Sequence record: PQ341120.1
Source: Escherichia phage EAWsc9
DNA: 64,000 bases
Direction: 5' to 3' (one strand)
Every line of letters begins with the position of its first letter. The stretch's first letter is position 1. Positions 21,967 through 26,956 of this stretch are shown here, piece by piece. The notes below the pieces were generated by a model. That model did no database searches. It had not been told where the DNA came from and worked only from the letters and a program-made list of their open reading frames with translations. The position numbers and the translations under genes are program-made.

Positions 21967-22040
21967 AAAGGACTCCTTATTGTTGGTCATGATTACGCTT
22001 TGCAGCCTTAACATAGCGGAATACTAGTTAGTAACTGTAT

Positions 22041-22316
22041 TTATAATCTTTTAAATTTGAAGCAATACATTGCAAATAAATCAGAAAAATGTCTATCAAC
22101 CCATATTCTTTGCACTGGACTAGTAACAGTCAGCATATAATGTGATTTTTGTAAATTTATTCCATTTTTATTCGGGCATTCTTTATTAACAGAATGGTAC
22201 GTGCTTGCTACTATTTCAATTTCCCTTTCATATCTCTCGCTATCTGTTTGTGTGGGAATAAATGCAATTCCAGCAATAACAAAAATAGAGATATACGTCC
22301 AAACCTTGTATACCAT
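22041..22316 (-). CDS. hypothetical membrane-anchored protein
   Basis: 91 aa; N-terminal hydrophobic helix YISIFVIAGIAFI. Confidence 0.35.
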   Translation of the reverse strand: MVYKVWTYISIFVIAGIAFIPTQTDSERYEREIEIVASTYHSVNKECPNKNGINLQKSHYMLTVTSPVQRIWVDRHFSDLFAMYCFKFKRL

Positions 22317-22323
22317 GCGAACC

Positions 22324-22896
22324 TCAGCTTGTTAATTCGAGCCAATGTTTTCTGCATAAAGATACGTACGATTCATTCCCACCGACTAACACTTGCTCGC
22401 CGTCCTTTACAGCAGCACCGTCGATTACTCTCGCGGTCATGGTTGCTTTCCGGCCGCAATGACAGACGCCCTTTAATTCAACCAGTTTATCCGAAATAGC
22501 CAGAAGTCTGGCTGAACCGGGAAATAATTGACCCCGAAAATCTGTTCTTAACCCGTAACACATAACGGGGATATTGTAATTATCAACCACTTGAGCTAAC
22601 TGGTCAATTTGCTCTGGTAACAAAAATTGAGCTTCATCGACCAGGACACAGTGGATATCCTTTTGAGACTCGGCCCATTTATAGAATTCAAACAGGTTCA
22701 TGTCGGCCGTTACCAGGTTTGCTTCCTGGCTAATACCAATACGTGATTTAATTTCAGATTCCGAGTCCCGATTATCAATAACAGGTTTTAGCAAAAGCAC
22801 GCTCATTCCACGCTCTTTATAGGAATAAGCTGCAGTCAGCAATGAAGCTGTTTTGCCTGCATTCATTGCTGCGTAATGATAAATTAAACTCGCCAT
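22324..22896 (-). CDS. tk: thymidine kinase
   Basis: 190 aa; P-loop NAGKTASLL, VDEAQF, and C-terminal CHCG...C zinc site typical of TK1-family kinases. Confidence 0.9.
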   Translation of the reverse strand: MASLIYHYAAMNAGKTASLLTAAYSYKERGMSVLLLKPVIDNRDSESEIKSRIGISQEANLVTADMNLFEFYKWAESQKDIHCVLVDEAQFLLPEQIDQLAQVVDNYNIPVMCYGLRTDFRGQLFPGSARLLAISDKLVELKGVCHCGRKATMTARVIDGAAVKDGEQVLVGGNESYVSLCRKHWLELTS

Positions 22897-22905
22897 ATCA
22901 CCTTC

Positions 22906-23091
22906 TTAAAGCGTATTCACATAAGCTATTAATTCGTTTTCTTTCGCATCAAATCGATTAGCAAATTCTTCTTGCTGTTCGGGAGATAGCGGGCCATATT
23001 CATCGTAAAAAGCGTTTGCTTCTGCATGCTCTTCTAAAAGCTCATGGATAAGCTCAAACAATCTACTTTTCTGACTAATACTTAAACTCAT
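22906..23091 (-). CDS. hypothetical protein
   Basis: 61-aa minus ORF. Confidence 0.3.
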   Translation of the reverse strand: MSLSISQKSRLFELIHELLEEHAEANAFYDEYGPLSPEQQEEFANRFDAKENELIAYVNTL

Positions 23092-23294
23092 TTCGGTTCA
23101 CCATATCGCACAAATTTAGGATGTTCGCAATAACCAGAATGAAAACCTTCGCCTTTATGGTTAATGCACCCTTTATTGGAACAGTACCACCAGTAATCGA
23201 ATTCGCAATTCATTTCATCATTGCATAAAGCTGCGATTACTGGCCATTCGCATTTTTCACATTTGGCCGTTTTAAGAATTCGGGCTTGGCTCAT
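23088..23294 (-). CDS. hypothetical Cys-rich protein
   Basis: 68 aa with CEKCEW...CNDEMNC...CSNKGC...CEH pattern. Confidence 0.3.
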   Translation of the reverse strand: MSQARILKTAKCEKCEWPVIAALCNDEMNCEFDYWWYCSNKGCINHKGEGFHSGYCEHPKFVRYGEPK

Positions 23295-23453
23295 AATTCA
23301 ATTCCGTCCATAGCCAAAATTCTTTTTCGTTGGGCCTTGAGAGCTTCATTAGCCCGGTCATAATCTTCTTGACTACCGCTAGGCTGTAAAGCCGCTACTT
23401 TTTTGGCCAAGTGAATAAGCTTATCCAAGTTTTCAACAATACGTTCTTGTTCT

Positions 23454-23918
23454 TCATTCAGTCTCATAATCCACCACTATTAAATCAATATCAGGAGTAA
23501 ACATGTCGATTAATTTAGAAACCTTTTCCCAATCTCCACCTGCAATACCACAACCAATGCGAGGAATGTAAATTACCGGTTTAAACAAAAGGGTTTCTGC
23601 TTGTAGATTTAATTCTATCATACAATTTACTAAAGCACCATAATCAAGATTAGGGCCCGGTTCATATTGGGTGTACAAATTATAACACATACCAAACCCA
23701 GTAGGTTTATGTTTAAAAACAATAGACATATCGCCTAATTTATCACGAGAACCATATTCAGTAGTGGTTTTATCTATTTCTAAAACTTTTGGATAAGCCT
23801 TCGCCAACTGTCCAGCTACACCAGAACCCATTGTGTGGAAGCAGTTGCAACCATGAGCAATAATATTGCCTTGAAGAAAGAGGGCGACGATATCGCCCTT
23901 AATATACTGGGTAATCAT
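23454..23918 (-). CDS. macrodomain (ADP-ribose-binding/processing) protein
   Basis: 154 aa; IAHGCNCFHTMGSGVAGQ and IPRIGCGIAGGDW align to the two glycine-rich macrodomain motifs of YmdB/MacroD-type proteins. Confidence 0.55.
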   Translation of the reverse strand: MITQYIKGDIVALFLQGNIIAHGCNCFHTMGSGVAGQLAKAYPKVLEIDKTTTEYGSRDKLGDMSIVFKHKPTGFGMCYNLYTQYEPGPNLDYGALVNCMIELNLQAETLLFKPVIYIPRIGCGIAGGDWEKVSKLIDMFTPDIDLIVVDYETE

Positions 23919-24274
23919 TTAGAGTTCAATCCTCTATTATATGAATCCACTAACCTGTCAACCATACTGGTGCAGGCCGCCTTATATTTTGCACTTGAAA
24001 GAATGCAATCCATTTCAAATAATTTCTTTTCATATTTGTTGGATAATACATTCTTTTTCAAAAGTGTATGTTCAACATCATTTTGACCATCTTTATATGC
24101 CGCGGTGAGCTTGGCGCTGAACTGGATTACACAATCCACATTGCTTGGTGCGCAATAATCTTTAGCCGTCCTCGTTGCATATTCTATGATGCTGTTGTTG
24201 TCATCGCTCTGTACTGAAGCTATTCCTCCCATGCTGAATACTAACCCTATGGCTAAAGTGATAACTCTTACCAT
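23915..24274 (-). CDS. hypothetical secreted/periplasmic protein
   Basis: 119 aa; N-terminal signal-peptide-like segment MVRVITLAIGLVFSMGGIASV; four Cys. Confidence 0.4.
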   Translation of the reverse strand: MVRVITLAIGLVFSMGGIASVQSDDNNSIIEYATRTAKDYCAPSNVDCVIQFSAKLTAAYKDGQNDVEHTLLKKNVLSNKYEKKLFEMDCILSSAKYKAACTSMVDRLVDSYNRGLNSK

Positions 24275-24276
24275 TT

Positions 24277-24819
24277 TTAATCCACCGTTTTTAATAGGCC
24301 TCGTGATTTTAAGTAGTTAGCTTTTTCTAGGACCTGTGAAGCATACGTATTACCAGCTTTCACATTCCATCCTGCGTTATATGATGATAGTGTTTTCCTT
24401 ATATCCCCCTTATGAATATTCAACCAGTATGAAAGCTCAATGTAAGCCCAGCGTGCACTGTTCTCTCTCTTGCTTATCATTTTGATTATTTCTTTATCTG
24501 TCATTGTCCACCCAACCTGTTTCACGCGTTCGCGCACGGTTGGAAGATAATTTTGGAATATACCATATGCATGATGCTTATCTTTATTTAATCCAGTATT
24601 AATCCCAGCAGAACTCTCCTGCCAGGTTAAACCAGCCATGATATATCCCAAACCATTATGTTGGTGCGGATTTTCTTTGTACTTACCATTTTTCTGGAAC
24701 TGTTCTCCAAACGCATAAGCATATTGGAGGTTTTCCATTTGTTCATTACTGAAAGTAGGCTCTACGCTATGGGCAGACATACTAACTGTCAATAGTAAGG
24801 TGGCGATTACTTTTTTCAT
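24277..24819 (-). CDS. secreted lytic transglycosylase (SLT-domain) protein
   Basis: 180 aa; signal peptide MKKVIATLLLTVSMSAHS; SLT motifs WQESS, YGIFQ, SYNAGW. Confidence 0.55.
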   Translation of the reverse strand: MKKVIATLLLTVSMSAHSVEPTFSNEQMENLQYAYAFGEQFQKNGKYKENPHQHNGLGYIMAGLTWQESSAGINTGLNKDKHHAYGIFQNYLPTVRERVKQVGWTMTDKEIIKMISKRENSARWAYIELSYWLNIHKGDIRKTLSSYNAGWNVKAGNTYASQVLEKANYLKSRGLLKTVD

Positions 24820-24829
24820 GAATTCCCCA

Positions 24830-25288
24830 TTAGATATAAATCACTTTTGTGCTAATTTTTCCTTCCAGACGATTAGAGTTAACAAACGCCATACGACAAC
24901 ACATGGTCGGAGACTTCCCAGGAATAGCGGGGTTAACTGTCATTCCTAACCATAGGTTCTTGTCCGTGATTTCCAGACGAAGTGGACGGTAGTTCACATT
25001 CGGGTCAATTTGTGCTTCAACTTCCGGGAGTGGTTTCATCTCCAAGAATTCAACGATTTCTTTTACATGTGGTGTGATTTTTCCAAACAAGTCAAAAACA
25101 TATTGTTCATCAATTTCACGTTGGATTGCACGGTCCAACAGGTGCGGACTGTACTTAATGAAGAATGCTTCAAGGCCTGCTTCTTTACAAGCCTTGTTGA
25201 TAGCATTATTAATTTTGAGGAACTCCGTTTCAAAAATGCGACGAAGTTTATTGCGGCGAATGTAAACACTTGAATCGATAGTAGTCAT
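24830..25288 (-). CDS. regB: RegB site-specific endoribonuclease
   Basis: internal ATG at 25288 behind AAGGAG gives 152 aa; VYIRRNKLRRIFETEF...KYSPHLLDRAIQREIDEQYVF matches T4 RegB from memory. Confidence 0.85.
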   Translation of the reverse strand: MTTIDSSVYIRRNKLRRIFETEFLKINNAINKACKEAGLEAFFIKYSPHLLDRAIQREIDEQYVFDLFGKITPHVKEIVEFLEMKPLPEVEAQIDPNVNYRPLRLEITDKNLWLGMTVNPAIPGKSPTMCCRMAFVNSNRLEGKISTKVIYI

Positions 25289-25344
25289 GATTATCTCCTT
25301 TTGTTTGATGGGATAATCATAACTCATTTCAATCTGCTTGTACA

Positions 25345-25924
<580 letters not shown>

Positions 25925-25928
<4 letters not shown>

Positions 25929-26143
25929 TTCACTTCCTCATCAGATGCAGTATCATATTCTACCAAACGAAGGCCATCATATCCGCCACGAACAGAGATA
26001 TACGTACTCGGATAAACAATTTCTTTACCATTCCATTGGCCACCGTCCCAACATTCCATAAAGCCTTGTTCGCCCTGTTCGTGGAACCAGTCAACAAACA
26101 GCTTCAGAGCTTCTTCAGAACCTTCAATTGTCAATTTAGACAT
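25925..26143 (-). CDS. hypothetical protein
   Basis: 72-aa minus ORF. Confidence 0.3.
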
Positions 26144-26432
26144 ATTTTTTCCAATCAGAAATCATATGAATCTCTTGGTCATAAGTCAAGAGACTACGAG
26201 TAATAATACCCTTACAAGGCCCAGAGATGAACTCGAGAGTAAAGTAAGGAACCTGTTTCATTAATCGGATACTTGGAGCATGACATCTAAAACGAGAGCC
26301 CTTAAAGGGCCCCGACATGAATACATATTCTAATGGATAGAAATAAGCATATTCAAAATTTGTAGTAAGGTCCTCTCTTCGGACCTTACGTGAGAAATAG
26401 CAGAACTCAAAAAGTTCTTCATCAGTCATCAT
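26136..26432 (-). CDS. hypothetical protein
   Basis: 98-aa minus ORF. Confidence 0.35.
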   Translation of the reverse strand: MMTDEELFEFCYFSRKVRREDLTTNFEYAYFYPLEYVFMSGPFKGSRFRCHAPSIRLMKQVPYFTLEFISGPCKGIITRSLLTYDQEIHMISDWKKYV

Positions 26433-26956
26433 TGCATTCCTATCACAAAGAACAGTGGCAGAGGTTTAGAACCTTGGCACATAAATTTATTCATCATTGT
26501 CTGATAAGCTTCATAGAACTTATCCATCGCTGGTAGGCGAATAGGCTCTTCAATAATAATCAATAATCGGGTAACAGATAGTCCACGGTACTTGTGAAAA
26601 TTATCTTCGTCTAAAAATGAACGAACAGTATCATATACAACAAACCCCGGTCGTTCAACATTAAGATGTGGTTGAGCTTTAGAAACCCGTTTTATTATAT
26701 TACAGATTTCTCGTGAGCGATGCGAAGAACTCGACATAACAATCACATCATTACCCTTAGAAACCCAATCCACAGCAAACTGTGCAATGGCACTTGTTTT
26801 ACCTGTTTGTCTTCCGCCGTCAAGTCTAAGAGTACCAAACTCTTGCATTCTTGAAGCGGGTTCATACCAGGCGTATTGGTCTGAATCTAAGCGTTCAATG
26901 GCGCGTTCAGCGAAGGCGTGCATTAAGGTTAGATAAATTGGAGTTAAAAATTTCAT
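26429..26956 (-). CDS. P-loop NTPase-like protein
   Basis: 175 aa; Walker A-like GGRQTGKTS. Confidence 0.4.
   Translation of the reverse strand: MKFLTPIYLTLMHAFAERAIERLDSDQYAWYEPASRMQEFGTLRLDGGRQTGKTSAIAQFAVDWVSKGNDVIVMSSSSHRSREICNIIKRVSKAQPHLNVERPGFVVYDTVRSFLDEDNFHKYRGLSVTRLLIIIEEPIRLPAMDKFYEAYQTMMNKFMCQGSKPLPLFFVIGMQ

Follow-up and report, generated by a model that had tools for sequence, protein, structure and literature searches.

The open reading frame occupying positions 23454 to 23918 on the minus strand of the window, i.e. of the whole 64,000-nucleotide stretch of Escherichia phage EAWsc9 DNA that was analysed (PQ341120.1), is the Gaprivervirus-type ortholog of T4 tk.4, now called adfM (anti-DarT factor, macrodomain). 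Orthology, synteny, macrodomain fold, subclass and the conservation of the active-site residues were all observed in this analysis, and there is hardly any doubt that the frame is a T4 tk.4/adfM ortholog and encodes a genuine macrodomain. The protein belongs to the ALC1-like class of macrodomains (TARG1/Poa1p/SCO6735/DarG), and within it to the lysine-less type. Its likely role is to guard the phage against DarTG2 through hydrolysis of thymidine-ADP-ribose (thymidine-ADPr) on phage DNA, probably in a Gln84-dependent and lysine-independent manner. The family itself is already on record, as are its occurrence in T4, the macrodomain character of its products and their role against DarTG2.

T4 Tk.4 (NP_049723.1) was 57% identical to the product over 152 of 154 residues (E=3e-68). 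In T4 the gene is annotated as 'phosphatase; Tk.4; contains A1pp phosphatase motif', a historical label that goes back to the relationship with Poa1p. The initial annotation knew of no macrodomain gene in T4, and this has to be corrected, since tk.4 occupies the same slot there. The two proteins are of nearly the same length (154 aa in the window, 155 aa in T4), both genes lie between tk.3 and vs, and all 13 residues that are invariant in the family, H22, N25 and Q84 among them, are present also in T4 Tk.4. The proteins differ in 43% of their residues, and the second loop reads GAGIGKGNW in T4 and GCGIAGGDW in the window. The 154-aa frame was found at its given place with both of the motifs that the initial annotation had quoted, IAHGCNCFHTMGSGVAGQ and IPRIGCGIAGGDW, in the translation; the strand, missing from that annotation, is minus. 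The gene order of T4 (tk, tk.1, tk.2, tk.3, tk.4, vs, vs.1, regB) is repeated in the window as tk, three small open reading frames, tk.4, vs, vs.1 and regB, with the flanking genes 45–71% identical to their T4 counterparts. Also the earlier placement of the gene in the tk–regB interval was borne out, Tk and RegB both being readily matched to T4. The features are as follows.

23454..23918 (stop codon included), minus strand: tk.4/adfM ortholog with an ATG start, from the list of open reading frames; 154 aa, a single-domain macrodomain protein.
23808..23861, minus strand, residues 20–37: putative first ADP-ribose-binding loop region, IAHGCNCFHTMGSGVAGQ, from the translation and the invariant columns.
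23667..23681, minus strand, residues 80–84: NLYTQ motif, from the family invariants, HMM alignments and an eight-sequence multiple alignment.
23529..23567, minus strand, residues 118–130: putative second glycine-rich (diphosphate-binding) loop, IPRIGCGIAGGDW, from the translation and alignments.
23915..23918, minus strand: ATGA, overlap of the vs stop (TGA) and the tk.4/adfM start (ATG), read from the sequence.
23915..24274, minus strand: vs ortholog (valyl-tRNA synthetase modifier), upstream neighbour, 45% identical to T4 Vs (E=4e-30).
23291..23467, minus strand: small open reading frame in the T4 tk.3 position, downstream neighbour, from the list of open reading frames.
22324–22896: Tk, 71% identical to T4 Tk.
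24277–24819: Vs.1, 65% identical to T4 Vs.1.
24830–25288: RegB, 60% identical to T4 RegB.

The ATGA overlap of stop and start codon is found also in T4; translationally coupled genes of a co-transcribed string typically have the layout seen here for vs and tk.4/adfM. Upstream of the tk.4/adfM start codon, at a distance of 13 nt, there is a GAGG, and at the other end of the gene the frame in the tk.3 position overlaps the last 14 nt. Scanning of positions 22000–26500 detected 13 sigma-70-like sites (13.6±3.7 in shuffled sequence) and five terminator-like sites (3.2±1.6 in shuffled sequence), thus no excess of either, and a promoter or terminator belonging to tk.4/adfM alone was rejected on these counts. 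Since such sites were no more common than in shuffled sequence, tk.4/adfM is apparently transcribed together with the rest of the vs–tk string, as one of its cistrons. There was no sign of recent horizontal import of the frame: its GC content (36.8%) is near that of the window (39.9%), and its 57% identity to T4 falls within the range of its neighbours.

The terminator-like scan also flagged a stable hairpin in the 5' part of the coding sequence (23881..23899, minus strand, CDS nt 20–38), consisting of an 8-bp stem and a 3-nt loop, AGGGCGAT-ATC-GTCGCCCT, and followed by a T-rich run. It is nearly identical in T4 though the flanks have diverged. Of 40 distinct homolog sequences, 14 keep all eight pairs, two distant homologs with different stem sequences (L029 and L073) among them, and one more (L026) keeps seven of the eight; most of the others have no hairpin. 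Wherever the peptide is KGDIVAL the hairpin is kept at synonymous sites, and in a few distant homologs it has been rebuilt by compensatory changes.

Relatives were present in 2,756 of the 50,697 phage records searched by tblastn, and 317 of these contained one at least 90% identical. The closest record was Escherichia phage ECML-359 (Gaprivervirus; 99.4%), in which the upstream neighbour is annotated as vs and the gene itself has been left unannotated. Many other records label the gene as 'phosphatase' or 'hypothetical protein' and several as 'macro domain protein', and in one recent preprint the tk.4 of T2 is called 'putative thymidine kinase'. Among 79 related IMG/VR loci, both tk and vs.1 were located within 3 kb of the homolog at 25, and homologs of the frame in the tk.3 position were present at three. 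Distant homologs recurrently adjoin genes of the NAPRTase family or ComF-like PRTase genes, and some of them are fused to extra domains.

The reading of the protein as a macrodomain, made in the initial annotation by eye, was upheld by profile searches and by structure prediction. Pfam PF01661 (Macro) matched it over profile positions 2–117 of 118 with 33.2 bits against a gathering score of 22 (E=5.6e-8), and PHROG 335 matched at E=4e-70. A family alignment of 116 members, the query and 115 homologs from a database of 5.8 billion proteins, gave a profile that matched solved macrodomains at E=3e-19 to 5e-10. The AlphaFold2 model built from the same alignment (mean pLDDT 95.4, pTM 0.90) consists of a mixed beta-sheet and helices, predicting the three-layer alpha/beta/alpha fold of macrodomains. 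In a Foldseek search of the PDB with this model, TARG1, Poa1p, BT1257 and DarG structures were retrieved at E=6e-11 to 5e-8 with probability 1.00; of the 167 matches at E≤1e-3, the best 50 were all macrodomains or enzymes designed on a macrodomain scaffold. The initial annotation had named a predicted structure without the macrodomain fold as a refutation; the model obtained shows that fold. The resemblance is well beyond chance, and both glycine-rich loops of the presumed ADP-ribose site are conserved.

The class of the macrodomain is a different matter, as the initial annotation had assigned it to the YmdB/MacroD type. Among solved relatives the family profile ranked BT1257 (E=3e-19), SCO6735 and TARG1 (both 2e-16) and Poa1p (1.5e-14) highest, followed by the DarG macrodomains of Mycobacterium (Mtb; 8e-12) and Thermus (Taq; 5e-10), while MacroD-like nsp3 domains reached only about 7e-4. 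The best NCBIfam model was that of the DarG antitoxin (NF048014, E=1e-6) and PADLOC returned DarG alone (E=5e-7), in both cases for the macrodomain portion only. NF001661, the NCBIfam model of the YmdB-type O-acetyl-ADP-ribose deacetylase, scored 13 bits against a cutoff of 291 (E=0.068). The Foldseek top 20 consisted of TARG1, Poa1p, BT1257, the Taq and Mtb DarG macrodomains and a DarTG complex, coronavirus nsp3 macrodomains being weaker by two to five orders of magnitude, and every significant sequence match in the PDB as well as all of the top 20 were members of the ALC1-like class. The profile, NCBIfam and PADLOC rankings therefore place the protein in the ALC1-like/TARG1/DarG class, and the NF001661 score together with the weak profile match to MacroD-like nsp3 rules out membership in YmdB/MacroD.

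Thirteen positions were invariant among the 116 family members: H22, G23, N25, C26, G33, A35, D49, N80, Y82, Q84, G88, P119 and W130. The first six of these lie in the first loop region, and N80, Y82 and Q84 in NLYTQ. In the second loop, P119 and W130 are invariant and G122, G124, G127 and G128 at least 90% conserved. Asn25 aligns with Asn22 of DarG and Asn23 of PhiKZ AdfM, and H22 with the His of the 'ILIHSCNC' motif of yeast Poa1p, of which an H23A mutant structure has been deposited (6lfs). Judging from the alignment to solved complexes, H22, N25 and Q84 would cluster around the ADP-ribose. The column of Gln84 is occupied by Gln also in T4 Tk.4, BT1257 and SCO6735 (Gln85), and by Lys in TARG1 (K84), both DarG structures (K80) and PhiKZ AdfM (K78). 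The hhalign alignment to PhiKZ gp104 set Lys78 two columns off Gln84. Lys and Gln shared one column both in a MAFFT alignment that included six further structures and homologs and in the HMM alignment to TARG1, and a published structural superposition likewise places them at one position (PMC9411070); the offset was treated as an artefact of gap placement.

The human TARG1/OARD1 (PDB 4J5R/4J5S) was the best Foldseek match (E=6e-11, TM 0.74–0.81), and its HMM alignment to the window protein is free of gaps around the catalytic position. The Lys84/Asp125 dyad of TARG1 is nevertheless replaced by Gln84 and Ala126, the latter standing where Asp125 is located in the TARG1 loop PRIGCGLDRLQW, and catalysis of the TARG1-like Lys/Asp kind is thereby ruled out. 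In this respect the protein resembles Streptomyces coelicolor SCO6735 (PDB 5E3B) and Bacteroides BT1257 (PDB 2AFC/2FG1), lysine-less ALC1-like macrodomains that were among its best sequence relatives of solved structure. It shares with them an 'N-x-x-x-Q' motif with Gln in place of Lys (NLYTQ; NMIGQ in SCO6735) and a second loop of the form 'PRIGCG[IL]AGGxW' with Ala in place of Asp125 of TARG1; this loop is PRIGCGLAGGxW in BT1257 and SCO6735, and GCGIAGGDW aligns with GCGLAGGTW of SCO6735. Both are cellular proteins, only 25–28% identical to the window protein. In SCO6735 the 'mobile loop' that follows the Gln is longer and includes the DNA-contacting Lys89, and loop 1 has Lys34, whereas in the window protein Ser32 is aligned with Lys34, the loop after Gln84 is 5–6 residues shorter and the lysines are missing. 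Since SCO6735 has been characterised as a DNA thymidine-ADPr hydrolase that does without Lys and Asp, the window protein bears, on these alignments, an SCO6735-type catalytic signature, without the DNA-contacting lysines of SCO6735.

With the DarG macrodomain (PDB 5M3I, 5M31/5M3E, 7OMU) the protein has in common the fold and class (Foldseek E~8e-9) and the Asn at N25/N22, and thymidine-ADPr made by DarT2 is presumably the substrate of both. DarG proper was nevertheless ruled out: NF048014 gave 28.3 bits against a cutoff of 250, the identity is 17–22%, and Lys80 is replaced by Gln84. The model was aligned at positions 3–138 of 338 only, the C-terminal DarT-binding domain being absent, and the neighbours of the gene are vs and the tk.3-like frame, with no darT adjoining it. 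PhiKZ gp104 of a chimallivirus (Cell Rep 2026, PMC13309987), which received the name AdfM independently, is likewise a stand-alone macrodomain of about the same size and active against DarTG2. It is of the DarG type, with E=9e-25 to Mtb DarG, 137.8 bits on the DarG model and Lys78 in 'FPTKDNW', and its relationship to the window protein, which is of the Gln type, is remote (BLASTP E=1e-3 over 33 residues, hhalign probability 95%). Membership in the PhiKZ AdfM lineage was thus ruled out, and most likely the T4-type and PhiKZ groups of 'AdfM' are independent acquisitions. T4 AdfN resembles the protein as an anti-DarT 'orphan antitoxin' enzyme that strips ADP-ribose from DNA (PMC11825919), but the adducts it removes are those of DarT1 on guanine, not those of DarT2 on thymidine. 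The anti-DarT factors AdfN (NADAR) and AdfA and AdfB (small binding proteins) have folds unrelated to the macrodomain.

Within the orthologous group, the anti-DarTG2 phenotype is on record for T4 alone. According to a preprint (bioRxiv 10.1101/2025.11.20.689424), tk.4 was the sole significant hit when a T4 transposon library was screened by HIDEN-SEQ on a DarTG2 host, and a clean tk.4 knockout sensitised T4 to DarTG2. The gene was there renamed adfM and its similarity to the M. tuberculosis DarG macrodomain noted; removal of ADP-ribose from DNA by T4 Tk.4 is described in this source, which is not peer-reviewed, as 'likely', i.e. as inferred. The literature yielded no biochemical assay of a T4-type AdfM. 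SCO6735, without Lys and Asp, cleaves DarT-made thymidine-ADPr off DNA and protects E. coli against DarT. The Q85A substitution abolishes its activity on DNA carrying thymidine-ADPr, and the proposed mechanism is water-mediated, the water being positioned by Gln85 and a backbone carbonyl (PMC9411070). PhiKZ gp104 AdfM strips thymidine-linked ADP-ribose in vitro and guards against DarTG2, and its activity is reduced by N23A (PMC13309987). AdfN, encoded by gene 30.3 (NADAR), is the counterpart of T4 against DarTG1, and the paper on DarTG1 and AdfN does not mention tk.4 (PMC11825919).

These data suggest the following course of events. A free-standing macrodomain would be expressed from the early/middle tk–vs gene string and would bind the ADP-ribose that host DarT2 puts on thymidines of single-stranded phage DNA. 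Hydrolysis of the thymine–ribose bond would then release the ADP-ribose and restore replicable DNA, so that the phage would serve as its own 'orphan antitoxin' against DarTG2. Catalysis would follow the lysine-independent, Gln-dependent route of SCO6735 and not the Lys route of DarG and TARG1. The initial annotation had proposed that a phage macrodomain could reverse DarT-type ADP-ribosylation of DNA; for the T4 ortholog this agrees with the genetics against DarTG2 published in the preprint (10.1101/2025.11.20.689424), and we infer the same role for the window allele. The phenotype itself belongs to T4, the enzymatic de-ADP-ribosylation of DNA is the presumed mechanism behind it, and the analogy with SCO6735 points to Gln-dependent catalysis in the window protein. 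Speaking against this explanation are the loss of the SCO6735 lysines K34 and K89, the score far short of the DarG cutoff, the remoteness of PhiKZ AdfM and the NAD-salvage neighbours of distant homologs.

The main competitor of DNA-adduct hydrolysis is a small-molecule function, in which the protein would, like Poa1p, remove the phosphate from ADP-ribose-1''-phosphate or the acetyl group from O-acetyl-ADP-ribose, feeding the recycling of ADP-ribose and NAD+ during infection, with any anti-DarT2 effect of this allele secondary or absent. T4 Tk.4 and PHROG 335 do carry a 'phosphatase' annotation, but this comes from the domain name and not from an assay. Poa1p, the yeast ADP-ribose-1''-phosphate phosphatase (PDB 6LFQ–6LFU), is a significant relative (sequence E=1.5e-9, Foldseek 7e-10) that shares the 'H-x-C-N-C' first motif, including the invariant H22, and the 'GIAG' of the second loop; it is a protein of 180 aa with inserts, and the significant sequence match covers mainly the N-terminal half. 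A distant homolog adjoins a NAPRTase-family gene in Pakpunavirus EM, and such a neighbour was present at 7 of 54 non-T4-like IMG/VR loci, yet these NAD-salvage neighbours were encountered only at homologs of 30–40% identity in other phage groups, neither in the window nor in T4. As the sole ortholog phenotype recorded in the accessible portion of the preprint is sensitivity to DarTG2 (10.1101/2025.11.20.689424), the small-molecule function is considered unlikely as the main one, though hydrolysis of small molecules and of DNA adducts are not mutually exclusive. In unrelated phages, the location of distant homologs beside NAD-salvage genes hints at a possible additional role of the wider family in the processing of small ADP-ribose metabolites. 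Somewhat less probable still is that the protein neutralises DarT2 chiefly as a binder that blocks the toxin. This reading is favoured by the in vitro inhibition of DarT by the dead mutants SCO6735 Q85A, DarG K80A and TARG1 K84A, strongest with SCO6735 (PMC9411070), and by the phage anti-DarT factors AdfA and AdfB, which have been proposed to be binders (PMC11481870). The protein has, however, no equivalent of the DarT-binding domain of DarG, and the invariant residues H22, N25, G33, Q84, P119 and W130 cluster in the motifs of the ADP-ribose site, as would be expected of an enzyme facing diverse toxins and not of a toxin-specific binder.

Two further explanations draw on other ADP-ribose chemistry of the infected cell. 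That the protein reverses or tunes the phage's own Alt/ModA/ModB ADP-ribosylation of host proteins or RNA–protein conjugates is very improbable, mainly on chemical grounds. To our knowledge, ADP-ribose is removed from arginine by enzymes of the ARH/DraG type and not by macrodomains. The substrates of macrodomains are esters of acidic residues, phosphate ends and thymidine. Alt, ModA and ModB modify arginine (PMC8120803), and no phenotype of this kind is among the T4 screens reported in the accessible portion of the preprint (10.1101/2025.11.20.689424). An eraser would still be a natural partner for the three ADP-ribosyltransferases of T4-like phages (PMC8120803), and SCO6735 and TARG1 act also on protein substrates (PMC9411070). 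Destruction of ADP-ribose-derived immune messengers, such as the cyclic ADPR isomers and His-ADPR of the Thoeris type, was the second suggestion of the initial annotation; it is favoured by the general ADP-ribose-binding fold only and is likewise very improbable. Thoeris components containing a macrodomain reportedly exist, and the known phage counters to Thoeris are sponges. Literature and database searches gave no evidence for messenger destruction by this protein, and apart from DarTG2 sensitivity no genetic phenotype of the ortholog is described in the accessible portion of 10.1101/2025.11.20.689424.

With hydrolysis of thymidine-ADPr on phage DNA as the preferred reading, the window protein is one more allele of a family present in 2,756 of 50,697 phage records, and the practical value of the result lies in the annotation: the gene can be labelled as a Tk.4/AdfM-type macrodomain and a candidate anti-DarTG2 factor. 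The statement that T4-type AdfM is lysine-less and of the Gln type, unlike DarG and PhiKZ AdfM, was not found in the accessible literature. Because of this active site, catalytically dead controls should be designed at Q84, N25 or H22 and not at a lysine. For the family as a whole, we tentatively suggest that T4-type AdfM may be a second, independently recruited anti-DarT2 enzyme, lysine-less and built on Gln84 (with Asn25 and His22), which would use an SCO6735-like water mechanism without the DNA-binding lysines of SCO6735 and might, because of what the neighbourhoods of the distant homologs suggest, have a broader range of substrates that includes the ADP-ribose metabolites of NAD+ salvage.

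The macrodomain gene tk.4/adfM of the window lies directly downstream of the vs ortholog, the stop codon of vs and the start codon of tk.4/adfM overlapping as ATGA, and is followed towards tk by three small ORFs. The features of this interval, the small ORFs being assigned by position, are:

23915-24274, (-) strand: vs ortholog (modifier of valyl-tRNA synthetase), with 45% identity to T4 Vs
23881-23899, (-) strand: hairpin AGGGCGAT-ATC-GTCGCCCT, within the coding sequence of tk.4/adfM (nt 20-38)
23291-23467, (-) strand: small ORF in the position of T4 tk.3
23088-23294, (-) strand: small ORF of 68 aa in the position of T4 tk.2
22906-23091, (-) strand: small ORF in the position of T4 tk.1

According to the HIDEN-SEQ preprint (bioRxiv 10.1101/2025.11.20.689424), T4 vs showed the strongest depletion of all T4 genes in minimal versus rich medium, and vs and tk.4/adfM therefore form a neighbouring pair of conditionally important genes.

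The hairpin within the 5' end of tk.4/adfM has a stem of 8 bp and a loop of 3 nt (approximately -12.6 kcal/mol), and a T-rich run comes after it. The corresponding T4 hairpin differs by a single base change, located in the loop, while the neighbouring codons are divergent. All eight pairs were intact in 14 of the 40 distinct homolog 5' ends compared, including two distant homologs (loci L029 and L073) with stem sequences other than that of the window (GGGAGAT/ATCTCCC in L029). A further homolog, in locus L026, retained seven of the eight pairs, and the majority of the remaining homologs lacked the hairpin. Three of the eight pairs are dictated by the encoded G-D-x-V-A peptide. The hairpin could serve as an attenuator, contribute to RNA stability or couple translation, and it may also be connected with the sRNA contacts reported for the T2 tk.4 mRNA in a 2026 preprint.

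The stretch of small ORFs that separates tk from the macrodomain gene seems to form a variable cassette, because homologs of the ORF in the tk.3 position were detectable in only 3 of the 79 related loci. The 68-aa ORF is rich in Cys and His (CEKCEW...CNDEMNC...CSNKGCINH), a composition suggestive of a small zinc-binding protein.

The closest GenBank record, Escherichia phage ECML-359 (OL631482.1), encodes a 99.4% identical macrodomain protein. No genes are annotated between its vs and tk (L001 3005-4022, corresponding approximately to 22897-23914 of the window), and thus both the macrodomain gene and three small ORFs resembling tk.1-tk.3 are left unannotated there. Among other records, some label the macrodomain gene 'phosphatase', some 'hypothetical protein' and some 'macro domain protein', and the 2026 preprint on T2 names tk.4 a 'putative thymidine kinase'. 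Moreover, two phage macrodomains whose relationship is only remote were each named AdfM, independently of one another: PhiKZ gp104 (L004 12518-13006) is DarG-type and contains Lys, whereas the T4 Tk.4 family, including the window protein (23454-23918), is Gln-type. Annotation pipelines may mix the two up.

Certain macrodomain homologs carry a fused extra region of about 100 aa, for which no Pfam match was found in either of the following:

L005 2240-2956: Escherichia phage ESCO9, 238 aa, extra region N-terminal, macrodomain at residues 106-217
L006 2495-3280: Salmonella phage Mushroom (Felixounavirus), 261 aa, extra region C-terminal, macrodomain at residues 25-141

A polynucleotide kinase gene is present approximately 2 kb upstream of the Mushroom homolog.

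In non-T4-like phages, macrodomain homologs of 30-40% identity adjoin NAD-related genes:

L007 773-2980: Pseudomonas phage EM (Pakpunavirus)
L005 741-2956: ESCO9 (Justusliebigvirus)
L031, L035, L066, L067, L069, L084 and L085: further loci

An NAPRTase-family gene is located directly 5' of the homolog in EM (Pfam E = 9e-37), and upstream of the ESCO9 homolog there is a ComF-like PRTase (PF15610, E = 1.5e-41) together with a borderline match to a HAD-type hydrolase (26.3 bits against a cutoff of 26.4). An NAPRTase homolog was found within 3 kb of the macrodomain homolog in 7 of the 54 non-T4-like IMG/VR loci. These neighbourhoods suggest that in those non-T4-like clades the macrodomain family is tied to NAD+/ADP-ribose recycling.
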